64,000 bases of DNA from Mobula birostris. Lineage: Eukaryota. The notes beneath the pieces are model-generated. The model did no database searches. It saw only the letters and a list, made by a program, of their open reading frames with translations, and was not told the DNA's origin. Made by a program: the position numbers and the translations under genes. This document shows, piece by piece, positions 8,905-51,700 of this stretch. The stretch spans positions 53,152,709-53,216,708 of the forward strand of contig NC_092402.1 of the NCBI RefSeq assembly GCF_030028105.1, given 5' to 3'. Each line of letters opens with the position of its first letter. Within the stretch, counting starts at the first letter, position 1.

Positions 8905-10215
8905 TGGATTGCACTGACAGGATTGGTCCGAGTCAGCATGGATTTATGAAGGGGAAATCCTGCTTGACTAATCTTCTGGAATTTTTTGAGGATGTAACTA
9001 TGAAAATGGACAAGGGAGAGCCAGTGGATGTAGTGTACCTGGACTTTCAGAAAGCCTTTGATAAAGTCCCACATAGGAGATTAGTGGGCAAAATTAGGGC
9101 ACATGGTATTGGGAACAGAGTACTGACATGGATTGAAAATTGGCTGGCTGACAGAAAACAAAGAGTAGCGATTAACGGGTCCTTTTTGGAATGGCAGGCG
9201 GTGACCAGTGGGGTACCGCAGGGTTCAGTGCTGGGACCGCAGCTGTTTACAATATATATTAATGATTTAGATGAGGGAATTAAAAGTAACATTAGCAAAT
9301 TTGCCGGTGACACAAAGCTGGGTGGCAGTGTGAAATGTGAGGAGGATGTTATGAGAATGCAGGGTGACTTGGACAGGCTGGGTGAGTGGGCAGATGCATG
9401 GCAGATGCAGTTTAATGTGGATAAATGTGAGGTTATCCACTTTGGTGGTAAGAACAGGAAGGCAGATTATTAACTAAATGGAGTCAAGTTAGGAAAAGGG
9501 GAAGCACAACGAGATCTAGGTGTTCTTGAACAGCAGTCACTGAAAGCAAGCATGCAAGTACAGCAGGCAGTGAAGAAAGCTAATGGCGTGCTGATCTTCA
9601 GAACAAGGGGAATTGAGTATAAGAGCAAAGAGGTCCTTCTGCAGCTGCACAGGGGCCTGGTGAGACCACACCTGGAGTACAGCGTGCAAATTTGAGGAAG
9701 GACATTCTTGCTATAGAGGGAGTGCAGCGTAGGTTCACAAGGTTAATTCCCGGGTTGGCGGGACTGTCATATGTTGAAAGATTGGATCGACTGGGCTTGT
9801 ATACTCTGGAATTTAGAAGGCTGAGAGGGGATCTTATTGAAACATATAAGATTATTAAGGGATTGGACACAATGGAGGCAGGAAGCATGTTCTCGCTGAT
9901 GGGCGAGTCCAGAACCAGAGGCCACAGTTTAAGAATAAGGGGTAGGCCATTTAGAACGGAGTTGAGGAAAAACTTTTTCACCCAGAGAGTGGTGGATATG
10001 TGGAATGCTCTGCCCCAGAAGGCTGTGGAGGCCAAGTTTCTGGATGCTTTCAAGAAAGAGATGGATAGAGCTCTTAAAGATAGCGGAATCAAAGGTTATG
10101 GGGATAAGGCAGGAATTGGATATTGATTGTGGATGATCAGCCATGATCACAGTGAGTGATGGTGCTGGCTCGAAGGGCCGAATGGCCTACTCCTTCACCT
10201 TTTGTCTATTGTCTA
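8905..10215 (+). mobile_element. CR1-type LINE reverse transcriptase and 3' end
   Basis: ORF 8856-9473 QHGFMKGKSCLTNLL..YLDFQKAFDKVPH..GVPQGSVLGP..KFAGDTKLGG (FADD changed to FAGD). ORF 9692-10126 is the C-terminus. Stops and deletions present. Confidence 0.92.
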
Positions 10216-20394: not shown

Positions 20395-23019
20395 TAGAAA
20401 CACGTACGTAGATACTTAAGCACAAACAGAAAACACACACAAAGAGAATCAGACACCCACTCAAAGAAACGTATGCGCATACACATGGAAACATACCGAA
20501 GCACGCGTTCACACATACAAAATGTCTCTCGTACGCACACGGAAGCACATAGCGTCTCTCACACACATAGAGTAACACATTGTCCTTCCCTTATATAGGA
20601 AATCACGTACAGACGAAAACAGAATCTCATGCTCACACACACCACACTAAACACACAAGAGTATTATATGCACACGGAATTACACAAAGAACCACACACA
20701 TACGCGCGCATATTATTGTGCTTGGCGATTTTACCCATCCATATCTGAATGCAGACTGTATCAGTCTCAATAAATCCACCCGCTCTGCTTTACCAGTTAA
20801 CTCTCCTCTAAATCGAGTTCAACACAAATAATTAAAAATTAAGTACAAGCCAACCAAGAAAAGCAAGCATTTCCGCTCCGGGGATTTAACGAGTTTCCAA
20901 GTCTGCAAAAGGGATAGCTGTCTCCCTGTAGTTAAATGTAACATCGGTTTTCTTAATTTCTCCCCAGTTTAATTGCCTTGAATTCGTTCATTAATTTTAA
21001 CTCAAATTTGCAATTATTTTTCTCAATGTTGGAATGCTCAAACTCGCCGCCTGATTTCACAGAGAGCGCGGGAATGAGTGAGAGAGAAAACAAGCGCGCA
21101 GACAGCTTAGACTGTGCTAAAAATAGGAGGCGGGTTTCTCAATGCCGTCTGCAATCAACGATCTAAAATACAAATGCCGTGGTATCAATAATTCCCTAAC
21201 AGTGACGGGGAGTGAAAATACCTTTGGTCTGGCCTTTTCTTATATATTTTAATACCTCTCTTATTATCAGATCTGCTTTGTTAAATAAGATCCCAAAATA
21301 GATTTTTTTTAGAAATAAAATCCTCACTTAATGTAAAAAAAATCGTCCCATTGCATTGTGAGACCACGGCCTGACAAGCTGATTACTTATAAATTAACGT
21401 GCAATTTTTCTCATGTTTTGAGGTTAAGAACTCGAGCAGTCTTGTCTAAGATAATTAAGCTTAAGTGGGAGTAATTGTACCGTCTCTCTTTCTCTCTGTC
21501 CCCGTGTCGAAGTCCGGCAACGTTCCCTCCATCCACCGCCGAACGAAATGTGTTTTTCGCTCTCCCGCACACGCAAAATCTACGTGAAATCTTGACCTTG
21601 ATGCCAAAACCATCCCCAAACCGCGGTTCGATCGGTAGAAGCGTCGATTTTTTTTCTTTAGCCGTAGAATAAAGAAATAATTAAGCTATTTAATGCGTAA
21701 TTCTAAATATATCAGTCACTGTGCGCATTAAGTTTTATACGTGTGGAGATCTGCAGCAATAAAGAAACAATTTACTATTTTACGCTTAATTCTATCCATA
21801 TCTGTTGCTATGCGCGTTACGTTTTATATGTATAGGAATTCAAAGCCGTGTTTAATCCGAATACACTCTTACACTAAAATCGAATGTTCCGAAACTTGAA
21901 TTAATTTAAAATTATATAAACAACAGAAAGATAAATAATCACGTTTACACTAAAATCTATAATTTGTAATTAATTTATCTTTCGAATTAAATCGGGTTTT
22001 GCGATTATATTTTCAAAAAGATGTCAGATTGAACAAATACCGTTCAAATTTCACGTCAAAGATAATCTACCCGAGTCTACTTGGAAAATAAATAAATTCC
22101 GGGGGATTTTCAAGATTTCCTGGAGAACTTCAGGGCCGCGGTACAATTCACTGCCTTTGTTTCATGTGGCCGCGCGGTTTCTCTTAATGAAAAAAAAATG
22201 ACTGTAAACTTCAAACCGTTTGGGAGTTCGCAATTTTAAATTTAAAACTATAAAGAAAAAAATCGTCACTGCCACGATTAAAAGGATTGTGTACATCCAC
22301 GTAACGCAAAATGCCATTAACTTTTCAGTTTATTTGCTCAAACACATTAACAAAAATAGCGCGTATTTTGACAGTGAGTTCGAGGCAGTTTTATGCAAAG
22401 CAAATATAACGTTCGACTTGTTCTCCTAGCCGAGAGCTTCGAGAGGAACCAGGAAATCCGGAGTTTAAAAACAAAATGCGGAGTGCTAATAAATAAAAAG
22501 CAGAATTATTTGAATATTTTTCGGGCTGAGGAAGGAAATGCAAGATTTTTAAGTCGCGAAAGTTAAACAAAAATAAATTACTTAAGTCTCCTTGTTCATT
22601 GATATGCAATGAAATGGATGAGATNNNNNNNNNNNNNNNNNNNNNNNNNNNNNNNNNNNNNNNNNNNNNNNNNNNNNNNNNNNNNNNNNNNNNNNNNNNN
22701 NNNNNNNNNNNNNNNNNNNNNNNNNNNNNNNNNNNNNNNNNNNNNNNNNNNNNNNNNNNTCTATCTGTGTCTCAGTACTCTCTGGCAGAAATAGGGAATA
22801 TTTGGAGGTGGTTCGAGTGACGGGATAGCGGCATTGGTGGGGAGAGAATTGGACGGAAGTGGCTGTAGGTGGTGGCGGTTGGAATGGGAGGAGAGGGAGA
22901 ATCCGACCTGCCGCGGTGCCCTTCTCCCTCGACTAGGTGCCGCTGTTGCTCCATCTGGGACCCTCCGCCTCGCTGCCCAACTTGAACCAACAGATGTCAT
23001 CAAGGTTGGCAGACTCAAG

Positions 23020-23062
23020 GCCATTTTCAAATTTCATTGGCCTACCGGTCACGTGGGCGGCC
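23020..23062 (+). promoter_or_regulatory. HoxC10 proximal promoter: reverse CCAAT box plus E-box
   Basis: tttcATTGGcctaccgGTCACGTGg, about 300 bp upstream of the CDS. This ATTGG + CACGTG pairing is typical of vertebrate Hox promoters. Confidence 0.65.
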
Positions 23063-23355
23063 TTTGCTTCCACCTTCCCCATCATCTCCAACTTCCTCCT
23101 CCTCCACCCCTCCCCCTCCCCAACTCTCCCGAAGAAACCCAGGCCCATAATAATTCTGTTGATGAATATATATATATATATAAATAATTACTTTTGGTCA
23201 AAATATTCTCCCATTTACCACTTCCCTCAAACCAGTCCAACGCAACCCAACGCAAACCGTCCCATCTTGAAAGATGTCAGCCCTCAGTGTGTGACGGGAC
23301 TCGCAACATTTGAAAATGTCATGGTTCGGACGGGTTTGATCCCCAGGTTTTCACC

Positions 23356-23977
23356 ATGGATCCCCCGGCGAGGCCGGCCAGAGGTGAGAACTTCAGAGGC
23401 GTTACCGATCTCTGCCTTCAGTCAGCAGGCGAATACGGTGGCGATGTTCGGAGCTGCTCCCTGCTGTCCTCCCGGAGTGAGCTGGGTTTTGCTCGCCTCG
23501 GGCTCGCCGGCTTTCCCTGCCTGAAAGACTTGCATGTGTGGAACGAGGCTCTCGTTGCCCGCGACTTGGACACCTACCCTTTCCCGGTGAAGGAGGAAAG
23601 CAGCTGCTGCCTCTACGGGACGGAGACCGGGCGGAAGGTGGCACAATCGGAAGACACTGTTCCCGGTTACTCCTGTGCTGCCGAAGCCTATTCGCCAGAC
23701 TGTCCTGCTAGCCCAGGCATTAACACCAGGACCATTGACAAGTCAACACCGCCGGGTGGTGAAGGAGGAGGCAATGGCGATAGAGGAGACGAGGAGCTCG
23801 GAAAGGAGAAAATCCGCACAACCACCAGAGCTGAAGACGAGAATAGAGAGCGGCGGGATGGCGAGGGCGATTCCAAGGGCGGCGGGGCACCAGAGGCGGC
23901 GCAGAAAAGGGAGCGAGCCAGTGGAGCGGCGAAGGAATCAGAGTTAAGTTCCGACGCTTTGGAAAACGAAATTAAAG
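23356..23977 (+). CDS. HOXC10: HoxC10 exon 1 (from the in-frame ATG in a strong Kozak context)
   Basis: Contains YPFPVKEESSCCLY (cf. Hox10 VKEENVCCMY), VPGYS and SSDALENEIK (cf. HOXC10 SPDTSDNEAK). Donor G|GTAGAT, phase 1. The start is uncertain, see findings. Confidence 0.85.
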
Positions 23978-24070
23978 GTAGATCGAGCAGAGAAAATGCA
24001 AATAAAAGGAAAAAATCTGACTGCGAGCGAAAATATTAATAAAAATGTTCTAATTAATTCAACCTACTTC

Positions 24071-24109
<39 letters not shown>

Positions 24110-25201
24110 TTCTTTCACACACACACGCGCGCTCATTCACCGACTCTATTCCACTCGAACCGCCTCTGTATTATATATCTCGTTAACTTTAATAACACAA
24201 AACAGATGTTTTACCCTGAGCTCACTCGAAGACTTAAAATCAATCTCTTGCTCTCGAGTGTTGAATACACTGGTAACATTGAGAAGTAAGGTGACACAAG
24301 AAATCCTACATTCTCCTTTAATATATTTTAATTAATCATTTGCGCCAAATTCTGAGCCAACGACGAGCAATGTAGCACGCGCCTCTGTATTCCCGCATAG
24401 TTTAAGGATTTTATGCATGGGCTCGGTTGCAATTACTTACAATTTTTTTAAATAAATTGCATTCAGGTGATTAACCCCCACTGCCGCGTATTATATTATT
24501 TAAATTATATGTATACAGTGCGCACATTAATGAGTTGGTACACGGCTGGGTGTACTGAGATTTCTTTTTTTTTAGTTTGAAGCATAAGCTTAAGGAGCAC
24601 TTTAGCTAAGCGGAGAATGTTTGGGAAAGTCTCCGCTCGGGTTTCAATCACACAGGTCAAGTTGGGGTTTAAATTCCTTCAAACACGCCCCACAGGCGTC
24701 TGAAGAGGCGATGATACTGGGCAACACAGCGTGCAGTTCGTTTTCTCTTTTTCTGTTTCAGTCTAAGATCCATTTATCTCTCTAAATATGAAATCTGTTT
24801 GTTATTAACTTCAATACGAACAAACGCACGATGTTGCGCAGCACAGAGACTCGTTGTTTACAATAGTTCTTCCGACTGGCCCGGGAGAATCTATCTTGAA
24901 GATTCAACCGACCCGCCAAAGGCTGACGGGTGTACAAGACTAAAGTCATTCGATAATTATCTGTTTTAGCTTTGTACGCTCCCGACTGTAGAAAACAGCT
25001 TTACAGGTCCAATTCAGGGGGTTTTGTCATTCAATGTGCGCTGAGGTGCCGCCGATTGCGGTGCTGCTATCGCCATAGAGATCTGGGACTGAGTTCACTG
25101 CTTAAAAACGATTTTGATTTAAAATTATGTTTGGAAGTATTTGTAGCTTTAACCACAGATGATCTGCCCCAGTTATTTTTTCCAAATGTTACAACATATA
25201 A

Positions 25202-25232
<31 letters not shown>

Positions 25233-25630
25233 TACTCTCCCTCTCCCCTTTAACACGAACGTGCACTCGATGTTATACAGCTTACTGGGGGCATTACGTC
25301 TAAAGATTCTTTCTCCTTCTTTACTGTTTCGAAAGAACAGGATCAGAAATACTAGGCAACGAATTTTTCCACTTCAGTACCAGGTCCCACTCACAAGTAA
25401 AGTTAATTTTCCAGAGATTTCACTAACTGGTATACCTCGCTTTTGAGAAGAGTCACTTTTGCTCTGTTTTTTCTCTCTTTCTCGTTCTTTTCTCTTTTTT
25501 GTCTATCTAGTTATCTATTTAATCATCCATCTAATAATTTATGTATCTAATACATTATTCGTCTAAAATTTAATCTATTATTTGTGTACTAATAATAGCC
25601 GCGCTCTGTACCTCCTTAACAGTCTCTATT

Positions 25631-25678
<48 letters not shown>

Positions 25679-44115: not shown

Positions 44116-45617
44116 ACAACTTCCTGTCTGATTTATAACCCTACCCCTTCCTTCCTATCCAACAGCAGGTTATTGCAACTGAATGATCTTGTTTGCGGTG
44201 AATTCGTTATTAAATACGGAGCCTTATTTCCCAGAACCGTTGATCGATCTTATCACTTAGAGGGGAGGCTTCTGAAGAAGGAGCGGGCAGGCTGTTACAC
44301 TGTTTTATGTTGGGAAAAAAACTGTTTCGACCTGCGATTTACTTGGGAGCGATGGGGGTAAAATTGTTGGCTTGCTAATCGGCCCTCGAGATTTGTTTTC
44401 GTAAATTGGAAGTCAACTGNNNNNNNNNNNNNNNNNNNNNNNNNNNNNNNNNNNNNNNNNNNNNNNNNNNNNNNNNNNNNNNNNNNNNNNNNNNNNNNNN
44501 NNNNNNNNNNNNNNNNNNNNNNNNNNNNNNNNNNNNNNNNNNNNNNNNNNNNNNNNNNNNNNNNNNNNNNNNNNNNNNNNNNNNNNNNNNNNGCTGGGGT
44601 TATTTTCCACAGTGGAATCAATGTTCGCAGGAGATAAGCAGATGCGATGTAGGACTAAATATCTGGTACTAACAAAATGTTTTTCAAAGAATATTAATTG
44701 TGATCAAATATTTGCAACAGTGTTCACCTTCACTCTTCCTTTCCCTCTCTCTCTAGTTTCCTTAATTTATTTCATCCTAATTAATCTTTACAACTCTAAG
44801 CATCCATCTATCTATGTATCTATCCAGCTATCTATTTATCTATAATATATCACTTATTTTTCACTCATTTATCTCACTCAATCTATCTCTCGACTCTTCT
44901 ATTTAACTATCTTTCTATCTCTTTCTATCTGTCTCTCTAGGTACCTATACACACCTGCAAATACAATTATAATGTTAGTTTTACAACACGCAACTCTCGA
45001 CATTCATTAGACAAATAGGGCTAGACATTTAAAAATATGGATAACGATATATTTCAGAGGAATTCGACATCATAAAAACTTTATTGAAATAATTTCTTTC
45101 AAAAAAATCACATGCACAAATATATAGTCACTTCGTAGATAGAAATTTGGACCGAATGCTTGCTTGTGCAGTCAAATAATCTGGGGTTATGAGAAATTAT
45201 GGAGCATGGATTTAATTTAGCAAGGGGAAGGAAAGGATCTGGACTGTCAAGACAGAATGACTATAATTATTCTGTCAAGGATCCGGAAGGCGAATTTTAA
45301 CAGGGCTTTCGAAAAAAGAAAATCTGCAATCGTTTCAAATAATGATCCGAGGGCGTGCAACCGCTATGATAAAAAAAGTTGTATCTATTTCAATTCAACT
45401 CATTACCTTCCTAGTCTCTGACGGTTTTTTTAATTAAAATTAAAGCACGTTATTTCACTGTTGGGACTCGTAGAAAAAGCGTTAACACATTCGGGAAAAC
45501 CCCTCGTGTCCTTTTATCTCTCCTTCTCTGGTGACGCTGGGGGAGAGCTGGTGGATCGGGGAAAGGGGGTGTTAGAGAGAGGAGGTGGTGGTGGCGGGAG
45601 GGAGGATGGGAGGGGGC

Positions 45618-45660
45618 AAAAAAATCCATGCAATCACGTGGTCTTCGGAGACCCAATGAG
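45618..45660 (+). promoter_or_regulatory. HoxC9 proximal promoter: E-box plus CCAAT box
   Basis: aatCACGTG (45635-45640) and CCAATgag (45653-45657), about 270 bp upstream of the ATG. Confidence 0.65.
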
Positions 45661-45766
45661 TTCTCACCCATCCAAACATACACACAATCACCTGCTTTGG
45701 TGTTTGTGTGTGTGGGAGAGAGAGGGAGAAAGAGAGGGAGAGTGGGAATGTAAAAACGTTTTGTGA

Positions 45767-45837
<71 letters not shown>

Positions 45838-45911
45838 TATGCATGTGTCTATGCGTGCGTGCGTGAATGTATGTGCGTGAATGAGCTGTTCGCGCTTTGA
45901 TACCGGGTGAT

Positions 45912-48500: not shown

Positions 48501-48739
48501 GTAATCCGGCCGTGAATTGGATACATGCCCGGTCGACGCGGAAAAAGCGTTGTCCTTACACAAAACACCAAACGTTGGAGCTAGAGAAAGAATTCTTGTA
48601 CAATATGTATTTAACCAGAGACCGACGCTATGAGGTCGCTCGTCTCCTGAATCTCACCGAGAGACAGGTCAAAATATGGTTCCAAAACCGGCGGATGAAG
48701 ATGAAAAAAATTAATCGCGAGAAAACCGAAAAAACTTAA
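48501..48739 (+). CDS. HOXC9: HoxC9 exon 2 (homeodomain); spliced protein 246 aa
   Basis: Acceptor tacag|GT. Reads [60 protein letters not shown]; the NWIHAR motif and EKT tail are C9-like. Confidence 0.96.
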
Positions 48740-51700
48740 CGTCTTCCGTCATTTTTCTTAAGCCTCGTGGCGTGGACTGGAAGGAAAATCAAAGCAAAAA
48801 AGGAAGTCATTTTTCAGCATAGAAACATTTAAAATTTTTCTTCTCACTGGATCCGATCCCAGAGCAAAAACTCAGACGTTCACCCCACCCCCTTCTTTTG
48901 AAAGGTTTATATAATTTAACAAAACGTAAGTTTTAGTTTGAAAAGATTTTCGTTTAATATTGTATAAATTGTACAATAATTATTGTCACCGTGGTAAGGT
49001 TGTACAGAAGGAAATGTGTCTTTTTTTTGTAAAAATATTTCGGAGTAATTTGATGTGGTCATGTGTCCATTTGTGATGTCACATTTCGATGGCTGTATGT
49101 TAAGTATTTAAATATATTTCAGACTGGACAGAACATGCTTAACTCTCTTTTTTTGAGGAAGGGGAATAGGTTTGTTTAAATATATACGCATAAACAACAC
49201 CGAGCGCTGAGTGCGGGCGTCTTTGAAGTTGAAAGTAAAATACACTTAAGACATAGTTATACGGACACACACCTGTGACTGCGCAAACACACACACACAA
49301 AGTAGTTCACCTATACATTCAAGCTCGCGCGCACATATTCTCGCAAACATGCCAACTCTCAGACACAAACACATCCCTTACACACTCACCCACATGGGCA
49401 CATTAATTCATACATGCACATTAACACACAGACATGCCATCTCTCTCTCTCACACACATACACACACACACATACACACACACACACATATAGACATGCA
49501 CATACTATTCATACACAATCTCTCACACCCATACTCTCTTTCCCTCTCCGACTCTACCTCGTCTCACACACACAGACAAATTCATTGTTACTTTCCTGTT
49601 ATACAATTTAAAAAGTCAAGTTCCAAACGTAATCAAGAAGCATCCATACAGAGAAAAATAAACCTTTATTAAGACATTGCAAGCTCATTACATTTCATTA
49701 ACACTGGCACAGACGTTGATTTGACTATAATAATCGAATTAATATACAACTTGCATCTGTTAATTGGTTTACAATTGTCCCCCGATCCTAGATAATTGAA
49801 ACAGTGCAAACTAAAATGCACTCTTGCCGCTACCAAACACTCATAACATCTCTGTTGTCAAGATGAATTGTCTGTTGTTTTGGAATCGCTCCCTCTCCCT
49901 TCAAGCTTTGCATAGCAACTATATCTGTCCCTTTCTCGCCCTTTTCTCTCTCGCTCTCTTTCTCTCCCCCCCCCCCCCTTTCTCCGCCTTTTATATGTCT
50001 ACTGAAAATCCACAAACGCCACAAAATAGAAGCGGGAAAGGCGCGTTGGTATTTTTAAAAACTAAAATGCTTGCAGGCGAGATATGTCCCGCTGAAAAGA
50101 ATCAGCGTGAATGGGATTTGGAAGATAGGTAGATGTGCGAGTCAGTCCGTTTTGCAAGTGCATTTATTTGTACATTTGTGTGTGTGTTGATATGGTGTGA
50201 TAGATAGATAAATATATACCTGGATACATATATCTGATAAATGGATATAGCTGATAGAGAGCGAGAGATCGATAGATACAGAGGAAACACAGAAAAATTG
50301 CTGTATAATTGGATAAGGAGGGAAATATATCAAGAGTTAAATGATATATGACGAAAAACACGTGAAAATCAGTTCGAATTTACCAATAGGAGGATGCATA
50401 TATCGGAAATATTCAGATCTATTTTGCATTTGGAAGACGATTGTGTAGACTCTGGTGACTCCGACCTTCATGTGAACAGGGANNNNNNNNNNNNNNNNNN
50501 NNNNNNNNNNNNNNNNNNNNNNNNNNNNNNNNNNNNNNNNNNNNNNNNNNNNNNNNNNNNNNNNNNNNNNNNNNNNNNNNNNNNNNNNNNNNNNNNNNNN
50601 NNNNNNNNNNNNNNNNNNNNNNNNNNNNNTACACTCTTCCTAAAATTCATAAAGGTAAATAAGTATCGTTCATAGACTTCCAAAATGTAAACAGTCGGTA
50701 AACGAGAGAGAGAGAGAGAGGAAGGAGTGAGAGTGAAAGAGTGAGTGAGTGAGTGAGTGACAGAGAGAGGGAGAGAGAGGACTGGTCTCAGGAATTAAAG
50801 GGAAGTATTTACAACCGCCAAACACATCCCACTGGCGCAGAGAGATACGAGGGTTATGGACAATTGCAGGTTCAATTCAAATAAATGTTACTTCAAGCGA
50901 CTCTCTCCTCTGTGGATGCGCTTATATATTCGGGGAGAGCATGGGACGAGATGGTGTATTTGAGTGGGGGCTCGAAGGTGCGGCTGATTTTATTTGACAG
51001 TCAAACAACTCACCACTACTATTTTAATTTGATGTTTACCAATTAATTCGTTCTAGCCAGCCAGTAGTCTGAAGTTCAATATATGAGGACAATTATATCT
51101 TAGAGTTTTGAACTAAATCCACAGCCCCGGGTGCCAATGGCCTCCTGTGTATGGGTGTATTCGTGTGTTACTCTATGAGCTTGTGTGTATTTGTGTGTGG
51201 GAGTAGAACTATCTGTCTTTACTCGTGGTGTTGGCGTCAGTGTGAATGTGTGTGTGTGTGTGCGTGTGTGTGCGCGCGCGCGCCCGCGCTTGTGAGACAG
51301 AGAATCTCTGTGTAAGAGAGAAAGAGTCGGTATGTGTGCATCCGTATGGTGCGTACGCGTGTGCGAGATTGTATGTGTGTGTTGCTATACGCATATATCT
51401 CTATGTTGTGTTTATCTGTGTGCTTTCACCTATATTTATCTGCGACCGTATCGATAACCGCATTGTGCGCGTGGCTACATTTTTATATACAGTACACAAT
51501 GTATGTGAATGTTTCATGTGTGCTTTTCCATATTGCGCACCTAAATAAGAGCATGTGCGTTTTTAAAATTGTTTGTTTCTGTATTTGTGTGTACCACTAT
51601 CTATCTATGCATATGTACACATACTCCGCGTTCTTTTATGCGTGCGTTTCTGAACGTTTGTAAGGATATTCTTGTGTAAATATCTATATGTTTTCCTACT

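Follow-up and report, generated by a model that had tools for sequence, protein, structure and literature searches.

The window, by which we mean the whole 64 000-nt stretch analysed, carries a two-exon HoxC10 gene on its forward strand. The coding part of exon 1 runs from an internal methionine codon, in the context ACC ATG G, to a GT donor (23356–23977, + strand), and its translation is 100% identical to the RefSeq model XP_072105525.1 (Hox-C10-like, Mobula birostris), which assigns the window to this species or a very near relative. Splicing at 23977 was found in contigs assembled from two sequencing runs, X5 and X15. The intron (23978–26929, +) ends at a tandem CAG/AAG acceptor (26927–26932), which accounts for the RefSeq isoforms X1 (299 aa) and X2 (298 aa), one residue apart. 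Exon 2 (26930–27207, +) encodes an intact homeodomain (residues 226–282; Pfam PF00046, E = 1.4e-20), identical to that of chimaera HoxC10 at 58 of 60 residues, and closes with the stop codon.

On the same strand, the gene is followed 3' by a mir-196 precursor (31316–31391, +; Rfam RF00256, 65.2 bits), a Hox9 gene and a further homeobox of Hox8 type. This is the position expected of HoxC10, and the order by itself cannot tell cluster C from cluster B. In a tree of 21 selected proteins, containing no A10 or B10 rows, the window protein grouped with that of the sawfish (100/100) and with shark C10 (100/99); D10 stood apart (100/100). No protein named A10 or B10 appears among the best 120 of 3457 matches. 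The gene at 23356 is HoxC10. It shares with the shark, chimaera and bony vertebrate genes (Heptranchias XP_067832498.1, Heterodontus XP_067881045.1, Callorhinchus P0009) the two exons, the Hox10 homeodomain, an internal MD(P/S)L motif and the position upstream of mir-196, Hox9 and Hox8. Searches with the exon 1 protein yielded no further ray HoxC10 (1 match among 558 candidates; 2 in a 50% representative library; 1 of 3437 with the sawfish exon 1 as query).

The 23 kb 5' of HoxC10 (window 1–23000) hold no further homeobox motif, and an ORF at 8946–9473 is presumably a LINE reverse-transcriptase fragment, consistent with an enlarged, repeat-invaded cluster. At the other end, the Hox9 homeodomain (∼48560–48740) reads F-L-Y-N where the aligned Hox10 homeodomains read F-L-F-N, at a site that is usually invariant. 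The stretch 45600–45911, immediately 5' of the intact HoxC9 start (45912), is mostly GA and TG microsatellite and contains 12 ATGs, several of which open ORFs of 5–13 codons; a Hoxc9 uORF is reported to be conserved in other vertebrates (PMC8892498).

The N-terminal 13 residues and the ATG at 23316

Thirteen residues precede the internal methionine in chimaera, horn shark and sevengill shark HoxC10, and exactly 13 lie between the first methionine and the internal M/L-D/E in 47 of the 124 proteins compared. Thirteen residues predict a spacing of 39 nt; the window has 40. The ATG at 23316, in the context ttgaaaATGtc, lies 40 nt 5' of the ATG at 23356 in a different frame, and opens an ORF of 7 codons (23316–23339, +) that ends GTT TGA, with the stop at 23337–23339. 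The sequence-only reading had described this ORF and its displacement in the same terms, and re-reading the sequence bore out the description along with all the coordinates given there. The main frame is shut upstream by an in-frame TGA at 23311–23313, so that a longer product cannot start in frame. The 13-residue N-terminus, a trait of HoxC10 orthologues, is absent from the reading frame and present solely as an out-of-frame relic.

Single-base removals across 23319–23355 were scored against a profile built from 18 distinct Hox10 N-termini. Removal of one G from the pair at 23323–23324 (+) was best, with a score of 13.3 against 4.9 for the runner-up, and marks the likeliest site of the extra base, a placement made by protein profile only. 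Other placements within the interval fitted the profile more poorly (≤4.9) and were rejected. Since 13.3 was reached by only 4 of 1885 other ATGs in the window and 12 of 3000 shuffles, the likeness to a Hox10 N-terminus that had been noticed after removal of this G is above chance. Natural N-termini score 42–54 on the same profile, and the relic matches five orthologues at 2–4 of 12 positions, whereas over the 12 coding positions that follow the count is 5–8. A lungfish HoxC10 model, which runs into its own leader, reads L-K-M-S at the ancestral methionine, as does the window. Judged by these comparisons of sequence, the relic is real yet worn, the ATG at 23316 is the ancestral HoxC10 start, and an inserted base, most likely in codon 3, split it from the coding frame. 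A literature search for work on what the N-terminal motif of Hox10 proteins does turned up nothing usable, and two metagenome scans for the HoxC10 leader in stray vertebrate DNA gave 45 pattern matches, none confirmed, and 0 matches.

An assembly error had been among the explanations proposed, with the suggestion that reads be checked for the one-G form. Contigs from 4 of 24 listed runs (X5, X8, X15 and X20) were compared with the window over 22800–24060. X5, another sample of the same organism, differs over 23197–23977 by one synonymous substitution and no gaps; X8 (organism B) differs over 23197–24060 by 31 substitutions and no gaps; X15 (organism D), which shares the splice, differs over 23204–23977 by 56 substitutions and one 10-nt gap at 23236, with none at the site. 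X20 is gap-free and has coverage from 23328 on, thus short of 23316 and uninformative for the site. The 40-nt spacing from 23316 to 23356 is present in all three runs that span it, from three organisms, and no run has the one-G form. In favour of a single spurious G in the consensus, the extra base sits within a GG pair, and the compared runs exclude those marked as a possible source of the window DNA. However, X5, X8 and X15 align across the site without a gap, and the M. hypostoma model, from an independent assembly, begins at the same methionine. The probability of a consensus error is thereby negligible: the runs refute it, barring an artefact common to three organisms.

The frameshift is common to at least three ray organisms. 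The RefSeq models of Mobula birostris, M. hypostoma and the sawfish Pristis pectinata all start at the same internal methionine; given the sawfish start, the shift is probably not recent and may be old in rays, the sawfish start being annotation alone. Annotation can truncate at this methionine, as happens in one Lonchura model, although RefSeq gives that species a complete N-terminus. The two ray orders split well over 100 million years ago, and a genuine sawfish start would make the loss older than that split.

Transcribed leader and upstream ATGs

The 5' leader (23197–23355, +) lies on the same contig as the spliced junction of exons 1 and 2. The X5 contig (record 5) covers 23197–23977 and the X15 contig (record 2) 23204–23977; both run on into exon 2, and because they skip the intron they were classed as RNA. 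Three upstream ATGs stand in this leader. The first opens uORF1 (23274–23294, +; 6 codons), with A at −3 and T at +4; the second is the ancestral start, now uORF2; the third opens uORF3 (23321–23524, +; 67 codons), with a weak T at −3 and G at +4, and overlaps the main ORF out of frame. None of the three combines a purine at −3 with G at +4. The sequence-only reading gave the ATGs at 23274 and 23321 correctly and omitted those further 5' at 23162, 22994 and 22884, which are relevant solely if transcription begins that far upstream. The uORFs are retained in organism D as far as its changes are listed. Predicted folding of the leader RNA showed no excess over shuffles (z = −0.85).

The leader extension of lungfish HoxC10 reads K-R-C-Q where the window frame over the ATG at 23274 reads E-R-C-Q, and uORF1 is probably an old HoxC10 leader uORF. 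A Hoxc10 uORF is reported as conserved in tetrapods (PMC8892498), and uORF1 may be this element. The ray leader as a whole resembles the inhibitory uORFs of Hox mRNAs (Ivanov et al. 2022, PMC8892498) in its short uORFs, their suboptimal context and their place in a Hox leader. Each of the three upstream ATGs has the trait reported there, lacking a −3 purine, a +4 G or both, and uORF1 and uORF2, with A at −3 and no +4 G, match the Hoxa11 uAUG. It differs from the uORFs described in that paper in having three upstream ATGs, one of them the former main start.

The 57 nt at 23309–23365, which take in the old and the new start, have no listed organism D substitution, against 7.7% in the coding part. 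The chance of so empty a stretch is P ∼0.01 at the coding rate and 0.06 at the leader rate, for a stretch picked post hoc. The sameness may reflect constraint on the leader DNA or RNA.

A TATA-like run of AT dinucleotides at 23166–23182 (+) is, from its sequence, a candidate core promoter. The depth of the RNA-like contigs is ∼10-fold higher 3' of this run than 5' of it (89.6 versus 8.3 in X5; 43.4 versus 3.6 in X15), the drop falling across 23083–23196, a stretch left out of the run alignment as repeat. The step is a weak hint of a promoter at the AT run, at the resolution of contigs that cannot place a start. X5 and X15 also each have a separate upstream contig over 22800–23082, ∼10-fold shallower than the HoxC10 contig, which may stem from transcription that starts upstream or reads through, or from DNA carried into the library.

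If most transcripts began 3' of 23321, the same short protein would be made from a main mRNA that lacks the relic, and the upstream ATGs would be irrelevant. Contigs cannot show where transcripts start, a de Bruijn contig does not represent a single molecule, and mouse Hox leaders are reported to be generally shorter than their annotation (PMC8892498). Against this, a single unbranched contig runs from the leader (starting at 23197 or 23204) through the splice junction in two organisms, the fall in depth sits further 5', and the leader that remained would be <35 nt. We therefore consider such a downstream start unlikely. The earlier proposal that a transcription start downstream of 23321 would remove the case is answered in part: the spliced contigs extend 5' of all three ATGs, at that same resolution.

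Initiation at the internal methionine

The ATG at 23356 has A at −3, G at +4 and T at −6. This context had been called ideal; ACC ATG G is indeed strong, but the T at −6 leaves it short of the full consensus. Met14 follows L, F, H or P in every one of the 47 proteins whose N-terminus is long, and all codons for these amino acids begin with a pyrimidine, so that the ancestral −3 position of Met14 would have been weak; the window has ACC. The strong context at Met14 fits selection for its use as a start. Taken with the 40-nt spacing, the relic and the open spliced frame, this supports the earlier suggestion of an N-terminally shortened HoxC10 whose old start is now a uORF. It is probable that the locus is a living ray HoxC10, making a functional 299-aa protein from a start relocated 13 residues on.

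Under relocation of the start, the conserved internal Met14 would have gained ACC and become the working start, the product being a 299-aa HoxC10 without its first 13 residues. Leaky scanning through the three upstream ATGs, together with reinitiation, would bring ribosomes to 23356. Some should leak past, because each of the three lacks a −3 purine, a +4 G or both. After the uORF1 stop, the ATG at 23316 follows at 21 nt, that at 23321 at 26 nt and that at 23356 at 61 nt. A plausible route is that the 6-codon uORF1 is translated, scanning resumes, 23316 and 23321 are passed and initiation restarts at 23356; the first two ATGs would tend to be missed because a ribosome needs time to reload initiator tRNA. 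The old start would now act as a short inhibitory uORF, and we infer that output is attenuated by the uORFs, probably damped and not lost.

Short uORFs with AUG-proximal stops are reported to make reinitiation and escape from decay possible (PMC10275272), and uORF1 and uORF2, being just 6 and 7 codons long, may permit both. A smaller distance from uORF to ORF may also favour reinitiation (PMC10275272), and the skipping route is therefore one option among several. The arrangement is like that of GCN4- and ATF4-type leaders and post-stop reinitiation (PMC10275272), with a short first uORF, an overlapping out-of-frame uORF, and an in-frame AUG that comes after an early stop. Unlike the cases treated there, the ray change is fixed across species and is not a disease allele, and the spacings are far shorter than in GCN4.

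A different use of the old start would be programmed +1 frameshifting, with initiation at the ancestral ATG and a shift at GUU-UGA that adds a 13-residue N-terminal extension. In antizyme-type +1 frameshifting, the second ORF is not known to have a usable start of its own. The HoxC10 main ORF, in contrast, has its own strong ATG 16 nt after the uORF2 stop, which makes recoding unnecessary. In favour of a shift, uORF2 ends GTT TGA (23334–23339) and the +1 frame there is the open main frame, as in an antizyme-type arrangement, and the lack of listed organism D substitutions at 23309–23365 would suit it, with the same post hoc P-values. Some fungi, algae and crabs naturally shift at GUU-UGA in their antizyme mRNAs, but chordate antizymes are listed with UCC only in the accessible text of the same source (PMC1874602). 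Moreover, the shifted product scores 4.3 against the ancestral N-terminus, and a predicted hairpin 3' of the uORF2 stop does not go beyond shuffles (z = −1.46, in a pseudoknot-free model). That the relic is an active recoding element, yielding a long HoxC10 isoform in addition to the short form, is very improbable. If it were true, Hox dose or isoform ratio would be under frameshift control, and the sameness of 23309–23365 would reflect recoding.

Selection on HoxC10 and its history in rays

The HoxC10 reading frame is open, and splicing preserves it in the transcripts of two organisms. Between the two Mobula models, 20 of the first 225 residues have changed and none of the last 74 (P = 0.005); the sawfish shares 64 of those 74. 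Against organism D, 14 of the 28 listed changes in codons 1–121 are synonymous where a quarter is expected (P = 0.003; pN 0.051, pS 0.157), a count taken from the 40 listed of 79 substitutions and presuming that the list is complete to 23718. All 22 listed organism D substitutions that are not shared with organism B fall at or before 23718 (P = 1e-4 if random), so the list appears to be ordered by position and is probably complete there. As far as these substitution patterns go, purifying selection acts on the HoxC10 protein. Compared with shark, chimaera and bony vertebrate HoxC10, the window gene has a shorter and faster-evolving exon 1, its first 13 residues out of frame and a strong context at the internal methionine. 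Changes in exon 1 private to the window lineage (11 non-synonymous, 5 synonymous) are indistinguishable from neutral (P = 0.33), and the batoid branch is long in the tree (0.65). Two single-residue changes stand out at sites conserved in the other Hox10 rows: Gly-to-Arg at residue 225, just before the homeodomain, in the M. hypostoma model (P0003), and Cys-to-Ser at residue 207, in the N-terminal arm, in the sawfish model (P0005).

These near-neutral changes, the Gly-to-Arg adjoining the homeodomain and the absence of HoxC10 from the gene lists of the Atlantic stingray, Caribbean electric ray and red stingray would all be expected of a decaying, transcribed pseudogene or near-null allele, in which the uORFs block most translation and the gene drifts toward the loss seen in other rays. 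The coding record argues otherwise. The coding part of exon 1 is gap-free in all four runs and no stop occurs among the listed changes; the last 74 residues are invariant between the two Mobula species, the excess of synonymous changes against organism D holds, and the improved context of Met14 suits selection for translation. We regard decay as improbable, and the early pseudogenisation raised by the sequence-only reading as poorly supported, in view of the in-frame splice and the two comparisons above.

HoxC10 is unlisted for the red stingray in the accessible text of one preprint (bioRxiv 2025.06.08.657570) and for the Atlantic stingray and Caribbean electric ray in that of a second (bioRxiv 2025.02.26.637739), which does list it for the sawfish, lesser devil ray, white shark and sevengill shark. 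The second preprint, in the same text, also leaves C10 unlisted for the horn shark, for which a RefSeq model exists, so the gene lists are incomplete. HoxC10 looks dispensable in close relatives of Mobula. Erosion of the elasmobranch HoxC cluster is already known (bioRxiv 2025.06.08.657570; 2025.02.26.637739; PMC13097845), and the window shares with the clusters described in the first two of these an enlarged, repeat-rich structure, fast-evolving members and lineage-specific gene content; their accessible text describes gene presence and divergence, and no start-codon shift.

The short protein is likewise already recorded, in the RefSeq Hox-C10-like models of Mobula birostris (299 aa), M. hypostoma (299 aa) and Pristis pectinata (276 aa), whose names are silent on the frameshifted ancestral start and on the uORFs. 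A literature search on elasmobranch, batoid and Mobula HoxC10, with most subscription papers and the preprint supplements outside its reach, found the frameshifted start undescribed. What is new is the frameshifted relic start; the short protein, HoxC erosion and Hox uORFs are known. With the short protein on record in RefSeq and no phenotype linked to it, the interest of the locus is moderate.

The coding start of a Hox gene rarely changes. If the start was relocated as proposed, HoxC10 of these rays would be a natural case of a Hox gene whose third codon was frameshifted and which persisted by promoting an internal methionine, its old start becoming a uORF. The leader would offer a simple system for testing the effect of a new uORF on Hox dosage, and the survival of the gene suggests that HoxC10 can do without its first 13 residues, conserved though they are. 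Within the erosion of elasmobranch HoxC, the ray gene, not abruptly lost, would represent one intermediate, between the intact gene of sharks and chimaera and the apparent loss in stingrays and the electric ray: truncated and probably damped.
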